In this document: positions 12,049 through 19,942 of the stretch, piece by piece
Numbering within the stretch: position 1 is the first letter of the stretch
Layout of the letters: each line of letters opens with the position of its first letter
Source of the DNA: a virus
Reading direction: 5' to 3' (one strand)
Length of the DNA stretch: 20,193 nt
UHGV virus genome: UHGV-0040698
Position numbers and translations under genes: made by a program
The notes under the pieces: generated by a model
Databases searched by the model: none
Told to the model about the DNA's origin: nothing
The model's input: the letters and a program-made list of their open reading frames with translations, nothing else

Positions 12049-12353
12049 TGACCACTTTTACCGACAAAGAACTGATTAAAGAAATTAAAGAGCGTATCAG
12101 CAGCCTTGACGTGCGAGACGATATTGAGCGCCGTGCTTATGAAATCGCACTCCTATCTCTGGAAGTAGAACCAGATGAACGCGAAGCTTATGAATTATTC
12201 ATGGAAAAGCGTTTCGGTGACTTAGTAGATCGTCGGAGAGCAAAAAACGGCAATAACGAATACATGGCATGGGATATGACTCTCGGTTGGATCGTCTGGC
12301 AGCAACGAGCTGGTATCCATTTTTCAACAATGTCACAGCAAGAGGTGAAATAA
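12048..12353 (+). CDS. yfdT: YfdT-like protein (101 aa)
   Basis: TAATG overlap with the upstream stop, GGAGG SD; size and position match yfdT. Confidence 0.6.
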   Translation: MTTFTDKELIKEIKERISSLDVRDDIERRAYEIALLSLEVEPDEREAYELFMEKRFGDLVDRRRAKNGNNEYMAWDMTLGWIVWQQRAGIHFSTMSQQEVK

Positions 12354-12703
12354 TGGAGCCATACAGCCTCACACTCGATGAGGCCTGTCATTTTCTCAAG
12401 ATATCCAGACCGACTGCCATTAACTGGATACGCACAGGGCGTCTTCAGGCAACACGCAAAGATCCCACTAAGAATAAATCTCCTTACCTCACAACACGAC
12501 AAGCCTGCATTGCGGCTCTTCAGTCTCCGCTGCATACTGTCCAGGTGAGTGCGGGTGATGGCATAACAGAGGAAAGAAAATGTCACTCTTCCGCAGAGGT
12601 GAAATATGGTACGCCAGTTTCACATTGCCGAACGGTAAAAGATTTAAACAGTCTCTTGGAACAAAGGACAAAAGGCAGGCGACAGAACTCCATGACAAGC
12701 TAA
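12353..12703 (+). CDS. Excisionase-like (AlpA/Xis-type HTH) protein
   Basis: [28 protein letters not shown] helix-turn-helix of excisionase type; TAATG coupling to the upstream gene; 3' end overlaps the integrase start by 124 nt, so the true C-terminus is uncertain. Confidence 0.5.
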
Positions 12704-13743
12704 AGGCTGAAGCATGGCGGGTCAGCAAACTTGGTGAAATACCTGATATAACGTTCGAGGAAGCGTGTGTCAGGTGGCTTGAAGAGAAAGCACATAAAAA
12801 ATCACTGGACGATGACAAAAGCCGGATCGGATTCTGGCTTCAACATTTCGCAGGAATGCAACTAAGAGACATTACTGAATCAAAAATTTATTCAGCAATG
12901 CAGAAAATGACGAACCGGCGTCATGAGGAAAACTGGAGACTCAGGGCAGAAGCATGCAGAAAAAAAGGGAAACCTGTTCCAGAATACACGCCAAAACCAG
13001 CGTCCGTTGCAACGAAGGCTACGCATCTTTCATTTATAAAGGCCCTACTAAGAGCCGCAGAGCGTGAATGGAAAATGCTGGATAAGGCACCAATTATTAA
13101 AGTGCCTCAACCAAAGAATAAACGGATCCGCTGGCTGGAGCCCCATGAAGCACAAAGGCTGATTGATGAATGTCCGGAGCCATTAAAGTCTGTTGTTGAA
13201 TTTGCACTGGCAACAGGCTTAAGACGCTCGAACATCATCAACCTTGAATGGCAACAAATAGACATGCAGCGCCGGGTGGCATGGATAAACCCGGAAGAGA
13301 GTAAATCAAACCGCGCAATTGGCGTTGCGCTGAATGATACTGCATGTCGCGTTTTGAAAAAACAAATCGGGAATCATCACCGTTGGGTATTTGTGTACAA
13401 GGAAAGCTGTACCAAACCAGACGGAACGAAAGCGCCAACAGTAAGGAAGATGCGGTATGACGCAAACACAGCCTGGAAAGCGGCGCTGAGACGGGCTGGT
13501 ATTGATGATTTCAGATTTCACGACTTGAGACACACCTGGGCAAGTTGGCTGGTTCAAGCCGGAGTCCCGTTGTCAGTGTTACAGGAAATGGGAGGCTGGG
13601 AGTCTATCGAAATGGTTCGTCGATATGCTCACCTTGCACCTAATCACCTTACCGAACACGCACGGCAAATAGACTCGATCCTGAACCCATCGGTCCCAAA
13701 TTTGTCCCAGTCAAAAAATAAGGAAAGTACTAATGATGTGTAA
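12580..13743 (+). CDS. Lambda-family tyrosine integrase (Rac IntR-like)
   Basis: N-terminal [14 protein letters not shown] arm-binding region; catalytic R (LATGLRRSN), HxxR ([10 protein letters not shown]) and Y (VRRYAHL); GAGGAA SD; transcribed toward the tRNA-derived att core. Confidence 0.9.
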
Positions 13744-13757
13744 CTTATTGATTTAAA

Positions 13758-13806
13758 TGGTGCCGATAATAGGAGTCGAACCTACGACCTTCGCATTACG
13801 AATGCG
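13758..13806 (-). other. Partial tRNA-Thr(CGU) (thrW) 3' end, 49 nt: attachment-site core
   Basis: Minus strand reads CGCATTCGTAATGCGAAGGTCGTAGGTTCGACTCCTATTATCGGCACCA = anticodon loop (CGT), T-arm and acceptor 3' strand of E. coli thrW; the 5' half of the tRNA is absent. Confidence 0.75.
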
Positions 13807-13894
13807 TAAATTGATCTTGTAAAATCAATACCTATCGAATTTAAATGGATTTTTTGCCACAATATTGCCACAGTTCGTTAGGAATCAGACAGAA

Positions 13895-14968
13895 ATGGCG
13901 ACTATACGCAAACGTGGTAACTACCAATGGGAAGCTCAAATCCGTAAACGAGGTTTTCCCTCTCAAACCAAAACCTTTAACACCAAAGTAGAAGCAGAAG
14001 CTTGGGCCAAAATGATCGAGTCAGAAATGGCGAGAGGAGTTTGGCTTAGCCGCAGCGAAGCGGAATCTACGACATTGTATGAAGCCCTAACGCGATATGA
14101 AAAAGAGATTGTTCCCGACAAAAAAGGGGCAGTGCAAGACCAATCATTGGTGCGGATACTAAAAGGCACTCAGCTGGCGAAAAACTATATGGCCAGCATC
14201 AGGAGTGCCGATGTCGCCAAGCTGAGAGATGAATGGTTGAAAATCTATGCCCCTGCAACCGTTTTAAGGCGTTTGGCCTTACTTTCTCATGTATTCAACG
14301 TTTCGCGGAAAGAATGGGGCATGGAGAGCCTGCTGAACCCCGTAGAGGCCATTCGCAAACCTCAACCCAAGAACTCCAGGACCAGACGCCTGGAAGCGCT
14401 GCCTGTAGTTTCTGAGAAAACCGGTGTTACGTCAGGAAAGGAAATAGCCAACGAGATCGAACATATCATCGCCGCAACACATTCATTAGTATTGCCAGCA
14501 ATCATTCTTCTGGCGTTAGAGACAGCCATGCGCCGTAGCGAAATCGCAGATCTTCGATGGCGCTTTATCGATCTTGATCGGCGAGTTGCACATCTGCCGG
14601 ATACTAAGAATGGTAATGCCCGCGATGTCCCTTTATCAACGAAAGCCATCACGATACTGTCCAGTCTCAAGGAACATTCTAAGCCAGCTGCTGATAAGGT
14701 TTTTGATATGCGTGCAGACGCGATTACCCGAGCTTTTGACCGAGCTGTAAAACGAGCCAGAGAACGATACGAGAAAACAAACTCATTATGTGATGAATCA
14801 TTCCTTAAAGATTTAAGATTTCATGACCTTCGACATGAAGCAACTTCTCGACTTGCTGAAATTTTCCCTATGCATGAACTGACCAAAATTACAGGACATA
14901 AAGATCCAAGAATGCTAATGCGGTATTATCATCCAAAAGCTGAAGATTTGGCGTTAAAGTTGAAATAA
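13895..14968 (+). CDS. Tyrosine recombinase / integrase of the second island
   Basis: Catalytic R (ETAMRRSE), HxxR (FHDLRHEATS) and Y (LMRYYH); ATG at 13895 (the track start 13865 is a TTG). Confidence 0.85.
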   Translation: MATIRKRGNYQWEAQIRKRGFPSQTKTFNTKVEAEAWAKMIESEMARGVWLSRSEAESTTLYEALTRYEKEIVPDKKGAVQDQSLVRILKGTQLAKNYMASIRSADVAKLRDEWLKIYAPATVLRRLALLSHVFNVSRKEWGMESLLNPVEAIRKPQPKNSRTRRLEALPVVSEKTGVTSGKEIANEIEHIIAATHSLVLPAIILLALETAMRRSEIADLRWRFIDLDRRVAHLPDTKNGNARDVPLSTKAITILSSLKEHSKPAADKVFDMRADAITRAFDRAVKRARERYEKTNSLCDESFLKDLRFHDLRHEATSRLAEIFPMHELTKITGHKDPRMLMRYYHPKAEDLALKLK

Positions 14969-14977
14969 GGACGTTAT

Positions 14978-15868
14978 ATGGAATATAAAAATAATTTGGT
15001 TGACGCATCATCCAAATTAAACAACCCTCAACTATTGGCTATAATATACTTAATACCTTTTGGATACTTGATTGTAGAAAACCCATTATGGCTAGAAAAT
15101 ATATACATTGCCGCTCCAATTTTTCTATCATCTATAGCTTTATTAACCAGTGTATACATAGGATATCGTGATTTATTAAATAAAGTATTTAATAATACAG
15201 TGGTTAAGTGGGGCGTAACTGGCTTTACATATTCAGTATGCTTATGGATCGCAAAGTTTAAGCTTGACATAGCTTATGGTATAGCCCCAGAAAATCTTAA
15301 TTACTCAACATTAGCTTATGCTTTCATGCTCTCATTTCCAATAGGAGCAATGATTTGTGCAACTACAGTCTATATATACATATTTTTGCGAGATGTATCC
15401 CCAGCAAAAATAGTAATATCCTCTATGATTTCAGTATATATTGGAAACTTGGCTCAACATCATATACAAGTGAACAATCTTCCTGAAAAAATAATATTAA
15501 TAGGACTCATAATTATGGTCCCCTATAACATGGTCAATCTAGCCAGTTCATTAGTTATTAAAAGGAAATTTAATTTTAATCGTTTAGTATCAGGCTTATC
15601 CCTTTTTGCTGTGTCAGTTGCTCTTTTTATTATTAGCATGACAGCAATGAAATATATTGAAAGATTTCAAGAAAAGTTTATTTTTCTTGATGCAAGAACA
15701 TCTACGACATGTGGTAGCGCAGAAAGCAAATCTCTTTATATTGAAAAAAATGAAAATCAGTGTTATAAAATATCAGGAAATAAATTCTCGGAGTTAAGAC
15801 TAACTCTTGTAGATAAAAACATCCCGAATATAAATAATAAGGGCACTTCAACTTATGAACAAAAATAA
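14978..15868 (+). CDS. Polytopic membrane protein of unknown function (296 aa)
   Basis: AGGA SD 8 nt before ATG, 9 nt after the integrase stop; multiple hydrophobic segments; strongly AT-rich. Confidence 0.65.
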   Translation: MEYKNNLVDASSKLNNPQLLAIIYLIPFGYLIVENPLWLENIYIAAPIFLSSIALLTSVYIGYRDLLNKVFNNTVVKWGVTGFTYSVCLWIAKFKLDIAYGIAPENLNYSTLAYAFMLSFPIGAMICATTVYIYIFLRDVSPAKIVISSMISVYIGNLAQHHIQVNNLPEKIILIGLIIMVPYNMVNLASSLVIKRKFNFNRLVSGLSLFAVSVALFIISMTAMKYIERFQEKFIFLDARTSTTCGSAESKSLYIEKNENQCYKISGNKFSELRLTLVDKNIPNINNKGTSTYEQK

Positions 15869-16082
15869 CCCTGCTAATTCATTTTCTATAGAAGCAAGGA
15901 AAGAAGCTTTTCGGAGAGCTGAAGCCAGTCTTTTTTTATCAAGTAAAGATCCCAAAGGCTCCTCATTTTTTAATGAAATAAAAAATAAGGTAATCAATGG
16001 AGAGCTAACCTATGAAGAGGCAAAGAGAGAAGTGTTAAATCATCACATTGAACAATCTAAAAATAAAATTAAAAAAGGCTAA
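15855..16082 (+). CDS. Small charged protein (75 aa), unknown function
   Basis: ATG overlaps the end of the membrane-protein gene by 14 nt; weak SD. Confidence 0.45.
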   Translation: MNKNNPANSFSIEARKEAFRRAEASLFLSSKDPKGSSFFNEIKNKVINGELTYEEAKREVLNHHIEQSKNKIKKG

Positions 16083-16342
16083 CATCCAGTTAGCTGTATT
16101 AGCTCAGGCTCGAACTGACAGTTTGCGTAGGCAAAATGCAACCAAATCTGACAGTCTGCTTTGAGCGAGGAGCGGACGTTAGTAATTGTATCGTCGTGGG
16201 CGCATTATTATTTTTCTATTCAACTAAATGTGATAGGGGTGTCTTTTAGTGTTGTTTCTATTGTTCACAAAGGCTTCAATTTGATATGAAGCCCTTATTT
16301 AAGAATTTAGGGCTAGGATGCTTTTGCGTAGCATTGCTATTA

Positions 16343-17296
16343 TTATTTAGGGCGGGCTGATGTTAATGTCGCTAGCAAGGTTGGCATGAACCATTCTCTA
16401 ACAAGCTCCTCATACATATTTGAAAGATTTGTTAACTTATGCCAAACCACTTCGGAACAGTAACTCAAAAAATGTTCATAATGTTCAGGTTTTACCTCTT
16501 TATCAATATCTATTTGAAGTTGGATCAACTCCTTTTGGCTCGATACCATCGGCTTCCAAAATTCATGACCAGACCATATATCTTGTCTAAGAGCAATTAC
16601 AATAAAGTTATTTACCATCTCTATAGCTTCATCGAAAGAGACAGGAAATTGTACGGCCGCTTTACCTTGTAATCGGTTTATTTCTTTTAATTGATAGTTA
16701 AAAAGTGAGAATGCGCCATACATTTTTGATCTTTTACCATATGCACGTAATGGAACAAGCGCATCTTCATCATCCAGAATTTCATTTTCAAGAGGTATAT
16801 ATATAGTCTTTGAGTCTTTTTTAGAATAATTCGGGTCTTCTGGTATGAGAACTTTATCTATGTAATCATTAAGGCAAATAAAAAATGCCTTTTCTGTATT
16901 AGTGTCAACTAGTATCAATAATACTGGAATTGCAATACCTATAGACTGAACAGTCAAAATGTCTGATATATCTAACTTGAATTTTGCGACAGGGATTTCG
17001 ACAAAATCGCTTTTATCTTCTGTTAACTTTCCTTTGGTTACATTTCCACGAGCATAGGCTTTACGTGTACAATATTCAATACAATCTGAAGATTTTAGTT
17101 GTACAAAGAAGTTTTCACCAAGGGTTTCTGCAATACTTTCACTGTCATCAATAAAATCAAATAATTCAACAACGCAATCAATACCATAGTCAGCGCCATA
17201 GCTATGTACGACCCATTCGCGAGGTAGTTTTTCCCGCAGAACCCTGATTGAAATGTCTTCTTTTACCTGGCTAATAGACCGTCTTTTCTTTGGCAT
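16343..17296 (-). CDS. DUF4365-like (PD-(D/E)xK nuclease-like N-terminus) protein, 317 aa
   Basis: Strong GGAGG SD; N-terminal HSYGADYGIDCVVELFD...FFVQLKSS pattern resembling DUF4365; AT-rich. Confidence 0.65.
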   Translation of the reverse strand: MPKKRRSISQVKEDISIRVLREKLPREWVVHSYGADYGIDCVVELFDFIDDSESIAETLGENFFVQLKSSDCIEYCTRKAYARGNVTKGKLTEDKSDFVEIPVAKFKLDISDILTVQSIGIAIPVLLILVDTNTEKAFFICLNDYIDKVLIPEDPNYSKKDSKTIYIPLENEILDDEDALVPLRAYGKRSKMYGAFSLFNYQLKEINRLQGKAAVQFPVSFDEAIEMVNNFIVIALRQDIWSGHEFWKPMVSSQKELIQLQIDIDKEVKPEHYEHFLSYCSEVVWHKLTNLSNMYEELVREWFMPTLLATLTSARPK

Positions 17297-17472
17297 GTTA
17301 CCTCCTAAAATTACAAATTAAAAAACAGATCTTACACTCGAATGCTTAAAATGTCCGCTTCTGACACAGGGCTGCTGTTGCAGCCCTGACAACCTCGTAA
17401 CATTCCCCCCTTCATTATTAGTTTTAAATCTTGTCAATTTTCTTCTTTCAAGAATATGCTTGCATCAAGCAA

Positions 17473-18867
17473 TCACGGCTTTTCCTTGGCTTTGAGTTTA
17501 TCGGCGACATCTGGAACAATACTAAACTCGGTTACTGATGCAAGTACCTGGTTTTTCCATTGGGTCTCACAGATGATCTCTCCATTGTGTTCAAACCAAT
17601 GTGTTGCCCCCGGCAGGAAATCATGGGACATTGGATAAGCAGCATTAGGGTTATGAAATACTTCAAGTTCAAAACACCAAAATTCTTTGCCATCGCAAAG
17701 ATTAATATATTCAGGCGATTGAATATCTAGATCGAAGTCAATTGGTTCCAAGGCCCCTTCAGTCCTATCAAATAAAATCCCAACCCTGCGGGCTTTCACA
17801 ATAGGTGAGGAAAATTCAGCTTGGATTGCCATTCGCTGGAATTTTGGCAATGTTCCAGCATTACTAAACAAGATAGCAGATAAATTTTCAATCTCTGGGT
17901 GGTTAAATAGTCCTGCCGGAATATTTACATGGCCTAAAAGCTTTTCAATTGATAATGCAGCAGCCTTCATACCTTTGGATGTTTTGACTGTATGTGCGGT
18001 TTGCCCATACAAATAGGTTGGAAGTGACTCGCGAGACCAGACCATAGTGCCCCCACCGCTAAAATCCGCTATAGCGATTGCAAATGGAAATCCTTTAACA
18101 TGCGGTAGTTCTTCATACTTTCTCTGGAGTTTAGATCTGATGGTCTTAGCGAACCGTGCTGCCATATCACCTGCTGTGCGAGCTAATCGATCTCCGGGGG
18201 GGAATTGTGTTTGAGGCAACTTTAGGCTGCCCGGACCAGTTGGATTCGCGGTGACCGCCTCAACATATGCTTTGTTATTACCGTTCATGAGCATAAAATC
18301 CGGAGATGGATAATCTTGAAAAACTTTAATTCCCTGCTCTTTAAAACATGCGAAAAGGTATAGCTCCCAGATTCTAGAGTTGAATCCTTGGGTCTGGAGA
18401 TCGGTTCTGAAGTTATCATCAGGTTTTGGTAATGCCAGATAGAGCTCGACAATTAAATGAAATGCTCCTCGGTACTTTATCGTGGACGATAATTGTATAA
18501 ATGCCTGACAAACATTCCGCTCACCAACATGATCCAGTCGGGCTCTACGTGATTGCCCAGATGGAATCGGTAATAAATCTCCTCCGGCTGAAAGGTGCTT
18601 ATCAAGATGCACCAATGCCTCCTGCTCGGTAAAACACATCTCATGCTCGAGAGGTACCAGCACATAATCTTCCCGTCGCCTGAGCACAACAAGGCCATAT
18701 GAATTTTTGCTGTATTGAAGGACTGCACCATATCCAAGCCCTTTTTCATTTGACCAAGCGGAAAGTAATTCCGCATTACCATAATTAGGCCCATGTGGCA
18801 ATGACATTGCAAATATCTTAAATGCTTCAGTAGGCATTCTTTGTAGGCTATAGATCTTATTAGACAT
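17473..18867 (-). CDS. Hypothetical protein (464 aa), second gene of a two-gene operon
   Basis: GGAGAG SD 8 nt before ATG 18867 (the track's ATG 18873 is only 2 nt from the SD); 22 nt after the upstream gene; no named motif. Confidence 0.65.
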   Translation of the reverse strand: MSNKIYSLQRMPTEAFKIFAMSLPHGPNYGNAELLSAWSNEKGLGYGAVLQYSKNSYGLVVLRRREDYVLVPLEHEMCFTEQEALVHLDKHLSAGGDLLPIPSGQSRRARLDHVGERNVCQAFIQLSSTIKYRGAFHLIVELYLALPKPDDNFRTDLQTQGFNSRIWELYLFACFKEQGIKVFQDYPSPDFMLMNGNNKAYVEAVTANPTGPGSLKLPQTQFPPGDRLARTAGDMAARFAKTIRSKLQRKYEELPHVKGFPFAIAIADFSGGGTMVWSRESLPTYLYGQTAHTVKTSKGMKAAALSIEKLLGHVNIPAGLFNHPEIENLSAILFSNAGTLPKFQRMAIQAEFSSPIVKARRVGILFDRTEGALEPIDFDLDIQSPEYINLCDGKEFWCFELEVFHNPNAAYPMSHDFLPGATHWFEHNGEIICETQWKNQVLASVTEFSIVPDVADKLKAKEKP

Positions 18868-18889
18868 TTTCATCTCTCCATAGATAATC

Positions 18890-19942
18890 CTAAAATTCAG
18901 TTAAATTGAAGCTTCCTTGATTTAGATGACATATTTCTGGGACGACCGATTCTGATATACCTTCACTTTCATGAATCCCTAGTGTTACTACTGTACTAAG
19001 CTCAGGAAACAATCTTCTCTTTGTTTTTGGTTTAATTTTTATATGTGAGATCATCTCCAAAAATCTGGAGGTTGTATAAATTGTGTCATAATGAGCAGAT
19101 CCTTCGCCATCGTCATACCATGAGCCTGTATCCACTACTACAGTGTTAAGTAATGGTGCTATTAAATTGAAATTATCAGTGCGAATAGAGACTGCAAACT
19201 TGAAGGGATAAGAATCTTGCTGTGCAAAGTAATCCTCACCACGCCCGTATTGCCTAGTAATTTCAACTATTCCGCGCACCAAAAGATAAATATAATTTTC
19301 GTCAAGGTTCAGCAACTCAATGGATTCAACATTGCACCAATCAACAGTTGTTTGTGAAGATAATATATCCAGTTCGTCAGGGATATTATTCATTGTGATG
19401 TCAGTAACTTCATTCTGTACTTCCTCGATTATTGATTCGGTAATAACACGCTCAAGTTCATCGAAGGTATCGAATATTATGTTACACAGTTCTATTATTA
19501 GTTTAGCACTCTCAAAAAACTGTTTGGGGTTACTATCAAATGAATGTTCGCTAATATGGGTGTAATCGTTTAAAGAAGAATAGTTTTTATTGAACCATGC
19601 TATACCATCATCTAGTCTTTCGATAGCTACATCATCAAGAAGTTGATCGGGTATATGCTTCTGGGCGATGTATTTTGCTTGCTGTTTACGGGTAACAGTG
19701 GCGTTATTTTTGTTTTTAGTGAACCATGGAGACGCCATAACTCTGTCATTTGGTGCCAGTCGTTTCAGCACATGATTTATTAGCTCACGTATTGCAAATG
19801 CAAAGTTGTTGAAGCGCAGAGGATTACCATGAGAACAATAGTTGCGAAGACTGGCATGTAAGAGTTCATGCTCAAAGTCAGTTTCTAGGTGCTCTTGAAA
19901 CTCCTTGATGAAATCCATTTCAAGCATTTTTTTTAGTTTCAT
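18890..19942 (-). CDS. Hypothetical protein with HEPN-like R-x4-H motif (350 aa)
   Basis: ATG at 19942; N-terminal FAFAIRELINHVL contains R-x4-H; AT-rich; first gene of the operon. Confidence 0.6.
   Translation of the reverse strand: MKLKKMLEMDFIKEFQEHLETDFEHELLHASLRNYCSHGNPLRFNNFAFAIRELINHVLKRLAPNDRVMASPWFTKNKNNATVTRKQQAKYIAQKHIPDQLLDDVAIERLDDGIAWFNKNYSSLNDYTHISEHSFDSNPKQFFESAKLIIELCNIIFDTFDELERVITESIIEEVQNEVTDITMNNIPDELDILSSQTTVDWCNVESIELLNLDENYIYLLVRGIVEITRQYGRGEDYFAQQDSYPFKFAVSIRTDNFNLIAPLLNTVVVDTGSWYDDGEGSAHYDTIYTTSRFLEMISHIKIKPKTKRRLFPELSTVVTLGIHESEGISESVVPEICHLNQGSFNLTEF

Follow-up and report, generated by a model that had tools for sequence, protein, structure and literature searches.

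A hypervariable membrane-protein slot behind the integrase of an apparently IncP-dependent mobilizable island in Escherichia coli

Introduction

GIsul2 and the IncP island are integrative mobilizable elements that depend on IncP plasmids (Guedon et al. 2017, PMC5704250). Elements known as PIMEs are defined by core components that include alpA and repA, with variants that lack a core component allowed; their excision is induced by helper plasmids, and the accessory regions beside their transfer module act as reservoirs of immune systems (Perta et al. 2026, bioRxiv 10.64898/2026.01.12.698999). Here we analyze one end of an island that appears to be of this kind. It lies in a 20,193-nt stretch of DNA listed as UHGV virus genome UHGV-0040698, the whole of which is called the window below. 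The window is 99.9 to 100% identical to several complete Escherichia coli genomes, and its DNA is that of the E. coli chromosome. The subject of this study is a trio of genes at the att-proximal end of the island, namely, the integrase gene, the gene for a polytopic membrane protein directly behind it, and a small overlapping open reading frame (ORF).

The island resembles GIsul2, the IncP island and the PIMEs in several respects: a tyrosine integrase lies at one end, the transfer genes are limited to TraJ, TrbJ, a TrbK-like gene and TrbL, a large defence-filled accessory region lies beside the transfer module, and the element is found in several genera. Unlike those elements, which lie next to guaA, it is inserted in thrW, and it has no annotated alpA or repA. 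A membrane-protein slot 3' of the integrase is mentioned in neither PMC5704250 nor bioRxiv 10.64898/2026.01.12.698999, and the word "membrane" occurs zero times in the main text of the preprint.

P2-like phages carry additional genes at three moron sites, one of which is the gpS-gpV (orf30) site (PMC6823313); other P2 moron sites encode phage-exclusion functions, such as old, tin and fun(Z) (PMC6823313; PMC9122126). Distant relatives of the membrane protein sit exactly at the gpS-gpV position. The occupants of that site are without known function; unlike a P2 moron, the gene in the window lies in an integrative mobilizable element behind an integrase, and no free phage among 50,697 records carries a homologue.

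Mobile genetic elements (MGEs) also encode inner-membrane exclusion proteins that are expressed in the carrier state and have fast-diverging alleles, among them P22 SieA, T4 Imm, HK97 gp15, F TraS and SXT Eex. The membrane protein of the island is likewise MGE encoded, predicted to reside in the inner membrane and represented by divergent alleles. It differs from these proteins in that no sequence or fold similarity to any of them was detected, in being larger, with seven transmembrane (TM) segments, and in carrying a predicted periplasmic domain with a cysteine pair. We report that the gene occupies a fixed position in the island backbone whose occupant is hypervariable, and we tentatively propose that its product acts in exclusion or defence at the cell envelope.

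Results

A preliminary description of the window, made from its letters, had placed a 296-aa multihelix membrane protein 9 nt behind the integrase and a 75-aa protein in a 14-nt overlap with its end, in markedly AT-rich DNA. The ORF list and the sequence confirmed the gene order, both lengths, the gap and the overlap (Table 1). The spacer between the integrase and the membrane-protein gene reads GGACGTTAT; the Shine-Dalgarno sequence AAGGA overlaps the integrase stop codon and lies 6 nt ahead of the ATG at 14978. The AT richness also held, with a GC content of 0.458 in the integrase gene, 0.305 in the membrane-protein gene and 0.311 in the small gene. The drop from 0.46 to 0.31 falls at the integrase stop codon, and the windowed GC profile of 15001-16000 stays at 0.31 to 0.32. 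The genes had further been described as co-transcribed. A signal scan revealed no promoter-like or terminator-like sites in the 9-nt junction, which leaves no room for a separate promoter or terminator and thus fits an operon-like unit; co-transcription of the integrase with the membrane-protein gene is itself suggested by the spacing and by the conservation of that spacing.

The trio was found with the same lengths and spacing in at least 10 enterobacterial genera, represented by E. coli and by Salmonella, Enterobacter, Klebsiella, Kosakonia, Pantoea, Cronobacter, Dickeya, Pectobacterium and Lonsdalea. Because these lengths and spacings recur across genera, the arrangement exceeds what would be expected by chance. 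The segment that spans the membrane-protein gene and the small ORF is present at least in part in 88 of 5,426 complete E. coli genomes, and in 54 of them at least 80% of it is retained. Comparison with a Dickeya locus (L002) and with a metagenome contig whose membrane-protein gene is 85% identical to that of the window (L019) revealed purifying selection on all three genes, with dN/dS values of 0.09 to 0.14 for the integrase, 0.21 to 0.24 for the membrane-protein gene and 0.26 to 0.43 for the small gene; the wider range obtained for the integrase is 0.06 to 0.14.

Islands that share a backbone differ in what follows the integrase. Three alleles were distinguished, which we designate A (the window), B (E. 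coli 2017.06.04CC) and C (contigs L038 to L040). The 315-aa homologue encoded by allele B shares 26% identity with the window protein and lies in a backbone whose integrase is 95% identical and whose TrbL and TrbJ are 97% identical; its membrane-protein gene starts 10 nt past the integrase and is followed, after a 13-nt gap, by a gene for a 66-aa small protein (62% identical to that of the window). Allele C, found on three independent contigs, encodes a 309-aa homologue after a 10-nt gap behind a 92 to 93% identical integrase, and no small ORF is present. The allele C protein shares 56% identity with the 315-aa protein of allele B but 26% with that of the window, and it is a clear member of the family (hhalign E value of 7e-71). 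Two allele groups thus carry a small three-helix protein, which is better conserved (62% between groups) than the membrane protein, and one allele is without it. The integrase is 91 to 95% identical across islands with different alleles, and 93 to 95% in the near-identical backbones whose membrane proteins share 26% identity; the DNA homology of allele B and allele C islands to the window stops exactly at the integrase stop codon, and these alleles likewise begin about 10 nt 3' of the integrase behind AAGGA. On this sequence evidence, the slot behind the integrase stop codon is a fixed backbone position with a hypervariable occupant that always comes from one orphan, AT-rich, seven-TM family.

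Several decayed forms of the locus also were noted. In Lonsdalea quercina (L046 and L047, 3041-5237), the island is cut down to the trio plus about 2.4 kb beside proBA, and the transfer genes have been lost. In E. coli H2 (L044, 3288-4951), IS1 has deleted the integrase gene together with the initial 154 nt of the membrane-protein gene, and the small ORF is intact. Other decayed E. coli forms retain only nt 1-668 or nt 660-1105 of the membrane-protein and small-ORF segment. Matches in IMG/VR were considered as proof that the genes are phage borne and were rejected as such; the contigs that extend upstream of the island integrase include the integrase of the adjacent prophage.

The membrane protein gave no match in Pfam, NCBIfam or PADLOC. 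Its only library match was phrog_26661, a family of unknown function into which 12 of 12 family members tested fall; a TIGR03982 match (E value of 0.029) and Pfam matches confined to single members (Claudin, PrgI, holin and Wzy_C) were dismissed as noise. A word-indexed protein search reached only enterobacterial relatives at 83% identity or more, and its profile version added one Advenella protein. The distant members were reached by an exhaustive HMMER profile search of 1.84 billion cluster representatives, among which the family comprises 18 proteins; 8 of the 18 are full-length distant members with 18 to 44% identity. A tblastn search of plasmids gave one weak match, in Pantoea. No structural relative was found in fold searches, and as far as the library and fold searches reach, there is no similarity to housekeeping transporters. 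The remote-homology and structure checks proposed in the preliminary description therefore yielded a tiny family and a seven-helix model but no relative that would suggest a function, and by sequence the family is an orphan that is structurally unrecognised.

A fairly confident AlphaFold2 (AF2) model of the membrane protein, built from 12 sequences, comprised seven long helices and a C-terminal three-stranded sheet (pLDDT of 77.6; pTM of 0.73). Averaged across the family, the N terminus and loops 2-3, 4-5 and 6-7 carry 10.5 Lys plus Arg residues, compared with 1.7 on loops 1-2, 3-4 and 5-6. From this distribution we infer an N-in, C-out topology that would place the conserved loop 3-4 and the C-terminal domain in the periplasm. 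The C-terminal domain (about 65 aa) contains exactly two cysteines in every family member and is probably disulfide bonded. W78, I102, Y109, D238, C245 and C262 are invariant in the family, and K77, T81, N97, Y100, L216, L237, Y254 and K257 are nearly so.

Homologues also were found outside the trio. P2-like prophages carry distant homologues (33 to 35% identical) in the gpV-gpS interval; these genes are AT rich, standalone and encoded on the opposite strand. Others stand alone on a plasmid-like contig after a resolvase gene, near CcdAB and ParA; on a 442-kb replicon, in the vicinity of a restriction-modification pair of the NotI type; beside insertion sequence fragments in Advenella; and at a plain chromosomal site between ychF and alsD. 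No VbhA-like ORF was present beside the P2-prophage, plasmid, 442-kb replicon, Advenella or chromosomal homologues. These contexts indicate that the membrane protein is autonomous and strongly associated with mobile elements.

The small ORF bears the RefSeq name "antitoxin VbhA family" protein. VbhA is the class I antitoxin of the Fic toxin VbhT (PDB 3SHG and 3ZC7), and its Glu24 blocks the Fic active site (PMC3667792). The small protein scored 12.8 bits (E value of 0.12) against Pfam VbhA (PF18495), compared with a gathering score of 25.9, and the best E value among nine homologues was 0.049; a SHOCT-like model fitted the same C-terminal segment slightly better (E value of 6.5e-4). VbhA was not found in a sequence-profile search of the PDB, and BLASTP of the small protein against VbhA returned nothing (VbhA sequence of PDB 3ZC7_B/3SHG_B). 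With hhalign, an alignment to 3ZC7_B was obtained that is weak but in register (E value of 0.078; 31% identity over 42 columns) and that sets S25-L-F-L-S29-S30 on S20-Q-R-L-E24-G25 of VbhA. The similar positions include the SxxxE serine and, in the C-terminal half, the G-x-L-T/E turn, so the motif serine is kept, whereas the inhibitory Glu24 is replaced by serine (by phenylalanine in some homologues) in an SLFLS(S/G) motif; other alleles of the small protein have SLFLSG, SLFLFG or SLYLSG. Three helices are predicted for the small protein (AF2 model, pLDDT of 75.6); VbhA is a small three-helix protein. Foldseek against the PDB returned no VbhA chain at an E value of 10 or less, a method that is weak for helical proteins of 60 to 75 aa. 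Unlike vbhA, which lies upstream of its partner, the small ORF lies downstream, and its partner is a membrane protein. No Fic gene occurs in the island part of the window or in any related locus examined, where the neighbour is always the membrane-protein gene; all small-ORF homologues whose neighbourhoods were examined lie in the trio context. The only other PHROG match of the two proteins, phrog_22101, is of unknown function. The charged protein of the preliminary description is thus a real gene product, but the VbhA label fails and the membrane protein does not depend on it; by sequence it is at most a distant VbhA/SHOCT-like three-helix domain and not a Fic antitoxin.

We considered whether the pair might be an addiction module of the toxin-antitoxin (TA) type that stabilises the island, with the membrane protein as toxin and the small VbhA-like protein as antitoxin. 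The RefSeq name and the 14-nt overlap of the two genes would fit such a module, as would the preservation of the pairing in two deeply divergent allele groups, the retention of the trio in the reduced Lonsdalea island and the fact that TA genes are common in IncP-type islands (PMC5704250). Against this, a toxin gene of a type II TA system is not expected to be kept without its antitoxin gene, and here intact membrane-protein genes without the partner were found repeatedly: in allele C, on all three contigs and behind a closely related integrase, and in the P2-prophage, plasmid and chromosomal homologues (L022, L033, L034, L035, L041 and L003). A metagenome locus (L018) has a truncated small ORF, the order of toxin followed by antitoxin is the less common one, and the small protein does not qualify as a VbhA antitoxin. 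An addiction module is, in our judgement, unlikely.

The integrase had been attributed to the island in the preliminary description, and both the thrW repeat and the annotation of relatives bear this out. Its product matches PF00589 over profile positions 6-170 of 172 (E value of 3.6e-26; 92.4 bits against a cut-off of 27.1) and phrog_1, an integrase family (E value of 3.9e-49), and by these profiles it is a tyrosine recombinase/phage integrase. In E. coli A23, the 3'-terminal 49 nt of the annotated tRNA-Thr match the distal att repeat (Table 1) exactly, and the intact thrW sits at the opposite end of the island beside proBA; the right end of the island lies beyond the window. PGAP annotates a 112-nt "tRNA-Ser" here (13758-13869, minus strand) in every genome with the island. 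As a real hybrid tRNA it was rejected as a false call because ARAGORN finds no tRNA, the Rfam tRNA model remains below threshold (22.3 bits against a gathering score of 29) and 49 nt match the 3' end of thrW; the sequence evidence indicates that it is this 3' fragment joined to island-end sequence. An Rfam scan of 13600-16450 found nothing beyond the subthreshold tRNA fragment and a chance snoRNA match.

The island of E. coli A23 is annotated end to end. From thrW by proBA, it runs through an ABC-three-component defence system, HigA, TraJ, TrbJ, a TrbK-like gene, TrbL, orf70, variable cargo, the small ORF, the membrane-protein gene and the integrase to the 49-nt thrW repeat. This order places the integrase at the end far from the tRNA and indicates that the adjacent prophage used the distal att copy of the island. 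The island integrated at thrW measures about 18 kb or more, and its transfer genes lie beyond the right end of the window. TraJ, TrbJ and TrbL are annotated by RefSeq for the same island in loci L001, L042 and L043, and Pfam finds TrbL and a NikA-like domain in the related loci L002, L038 and L045. In E. coli A23, the stretch from the integrase to thrW has no annotated alpA regulator or repA replicase, and neither gene is annotated in L001. The GIsul2/IncP-island/PIME type is marked by trbJ, a trbK-like gene and trbL, plus traJ/oriT, without a full type IV secretion system; the island has trbJ, a trbK-like gene, trbL and traJ, and its gene content identifies it as a mobilizable element of this type, presumably IncP dependent.

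Transfer genes in the same island raise the question of whether the membrane protein is a conjugation-related accessory, acting in entry exclusion or at the mating channel together with TrbJ, TrbK and TrbL of the island and a helper IncP plasmid, with its alleles as exclusion groups. Entry-exclusion proteins such as F TraS and SXT Eex typically are inner-membrane proteins with highly divergent alleles, and the slot belongs to the island backbone. Furthermore, an island with only TraJ and TrbJ/K/L is expected to reshape the mating apparatus of its helper (PMC5704250; bioRxiv 10.64898/2026.01.12.698999). Covariation of the membrane-protein alleles with TrbJ and TrbL was examined and rejected, since islands whose TrbJ and TrbL share 97% identity have membrane proteins that share 26%. 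The interval between trbJ and trbL already holds a TrbK-like exclusion gene, and no conjugation genes lie near the homologues in P2-like prophages and at a plain chromosomal site. A role of this kind seems to us improbable.

The window carries three cargo genes (16343-19942, minus strand). One encodes a DUF4365 protein, another a PD-T7-1 homologue (PADLOC, 3.8e-83) and another a pPIWI-associated nuclease (Aga_Nuclease, 1.4e-58); no Argonaute gene is present. Cargo differs from island to island; E. coli A23 has dynamin-family genes at the same junction. In Dickeya, Pectobacterium and the L038 group, cargo is absent and the small ORF or the membrane-protein gene abuts orf70-TrbL, from which it follows that cargo enters at the convergent junction just 3' of the small ORF. 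To judge from these comparisons, this junction is an insertion hotspot for defence genes.

The orf70 gene is itself a side observation: a conserved ORF of 70 to 76 aa lies between TrbL and the small ORF or membrane-protein gene in all islands, its products are 66 to 70% identical, and its homologues have no Pfam match. A hairpin spans the stop codon of the small ORF (Table 1). It resembles a terminator that would stop convergent transcription from the trb side, and an identical hairpin is present in the Dickeya island, which has orf70/TrbL directly beside the small ORF.

Upstream of the island integrase, the two 8-bp direct repeats (TTGCCACA) are possible integrase or regulator binding sites or promoter-region elements. 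A 6-bp inverted repeat, ATTGAT...ATCAAT, at 13810-13829 beside the att repeat is a further candidate for an integrase or regulator binding site. A 10-nt direct repeat, ATTTAAATGG, at 13751-13760 and 13839-13848 (88 nt apart) flanks the thrW fragment; it may be a remnant of an older att junction, or it may be due to chance. A second tyrosine integrase gene (12580-13743, 387 aa) encodes a protein that is 29% identical to the island integrase and unrelated to it. It adjoins a gene for an AlpA-like helix-turn-helix protein and yfdR/S/T-like prophage genes (12269-13743 and leftwards). The prophage with this integrase stands in tandem with the island, and its attachment site is the distal thrW repeat of the island. 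This position is taken by a different integrase (56% identical) in some other genomes and is empty in others.

Table 1. Positions of the trio and of features around it (window coordinates unless a locus is named)
Feature	Position	Strand	Details
Integrase gene	13895-14968	+	ATG at 13895; TAA stop at 14966-14968; 357 aa
Membrane-protein gene	14978-15868	+	296 aa; inner membrane (predicted); phrog_26661
Small ORF	15855-16082	+	75 aa; predicted three-helix cytoplasmic protein
Integrase stop/Shine-Dalgarno/membrane-protein gene start junction	14964-14980	+	TAAGGACGTTATATG
Distal att repeat, 49-nt copy of the tRNA-Thr (thrW) 3' end	13758-13806	-	Exact match
Two 8-bp direct repeats TTGCCACA, 11 bp apart	13854-13872	+	Read from the sequence; just 5' of the integrase start
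Hairpin GCTAAC-ATCCA-GTTAGC spanning the small-ORF stop codon	16078-16094	-	Minus-strand T-run
Terminator-like hairpin, first on the plus strand past the small ORF	16272-16293	+	Consensus match only
orf70	L002, 6243-6455; L038, 6999-7229; L042, 30207-30419	-	Uncharacterised backbone gene

Discussion

The reading to which we incline, tentatively, is that the membrane protein acts autonomously in exclusion or defence at the level of the envelope, that it is produced constitutively together with the integrase and that the small protein is an optional cytoplasmic partner. The membrane protein would be produced from the integrase transcript by coupled or reinitiated translation, so that every island-bearing cell would hold a low, constitutive amount of it in the inner membrane. 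Its conserved loop 3-4 and its probably disulfide-bonded C-terminal domain would face the periplasm, where the protein would block an incoming agent at the envelope; most likely, it would keep the DNA of competing phages from entering the cell (superinfection exclusion). An arms race, or the existence of specificity groups, would then account for the deep divergence of the alleles. As an accessory in the cytoplasm, the small protein would bind the membrane protein or tune it and would not be required for its tolerance by the cell. We count in favour of this reading that a PD-T7-1 homologue and a pPIWI-associated nuclease adjoin the trio, with other cargo in that place in other islands.

Several points weigh against it. 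A promoter within the 3' part of the integrase gene might drive the membrane-protein gene, which keeps co-transcription at the level of an expectation. PADLOC has no match for the membrane protein or the small protein, the PHROG matches are to families of unknown function, and no homology to exclusion or defence proteins was found. Defence genes usually lie in variable cargo and are not hard-wired to an integrase. A tblastn search of the phage records gave no match, so no isolated phage genome among them carries a homologue. The periplasmic orientation is derived from the positive-inside rule and from an AF2 model of 12 sequences, and the homologue between ychF and alsD has an ordinary neighbourhood.

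The preliminary description had regarded the membrane protein as cargo tied to the life cycle of the element, for example a superinfection-exclusion protein or an abortive-infection effector. An exclusion or defence role is still the best guess, but the pair occupies a fixed backbone slot with divergent alleles and is not occasional cargo. The tie to the life cycle fares similarly: the gene is linked to the integrase in all three alleles, yet homologues stand alone without an integrase or small ORF.

Extreme allelic divergence, carriage on MGEs and AT-rich composition are typical of immunity genes, and the membrane protein has all three, as well as a polytopic inner-membrane structure whose conserved residues are predicted to face the periplasm. 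It might accordingly be an orphan immunity protein against a bacteriocin, a contact-dependent toxin or a type VI effector that acts in the periplasm or on the membrane. No toxin gene was adjacent in any context examined, however, and there is no similarity to known immunity families; we think it rather improbable that this is its role.

We give still less credence to a surface-polysaccharide or envelope-modifying enzyme of the lysogenic-conversion type, comparable to the O-antigen modification genes found beside phage integrases. An AT-rich gene for a polytopic membrane protein at an integrase and at a prophage moron site is what such an enzyme would lead one to expect, and an invariant aspartate and invariant tyrosines are predicted on the periplasmic side. 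With seven TM segments and about 300 aa, though, the protein is too small for the Wzy, GtrC, Oac or GT-C types; it has no Acyl_transf_3, Gtr or significant Wzy match (Wzy_C appeared once, with an E value of 0.35), and no GtrA/GtrB-type partner genes are present.

Least probable of all is a life-cycle sensor, in which the seven-TM protein would detect an envelope event (contact with a helper plasmid or its mating apparatus, or phage attack or DNA entry) and the small protein would relay it to integrase expression or activity or to excision: the apparent translational tie to the integrase in all three alleles, the lack of an annotated alpA or excisionase gene in the islands and the helper-plasmid-induced excision of PIMEs (bioRxiv 10.64898/2026.01.12.698999) speak for it, but homologues exist outside any integrase context, allele C is without the small protein, and no signalling or DNA-binding domain was found. 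If true, it would be a new sensory module that times the excision of a mobilizable island, with the deep alleles responding to different cues.

The findings on the small protein bear on surveys of TA systems, in which "antitoxin VbhA family" proteins in the trio context should not be counted as Fic antitoxins. If the proposed exclusion or defence role of the membrane protein is correct, it would represent a new, structurally unrecognised family found in IncP-dependent islands, P2-like prophages and plasmids. Besides swappable defence cargo, the islands would then have a protection gene that is built in, switches alleles and is expressed with the integrase. With their near-identical backbones, the natural alleles A, B and C constitute a ready-made experiment on specificity.

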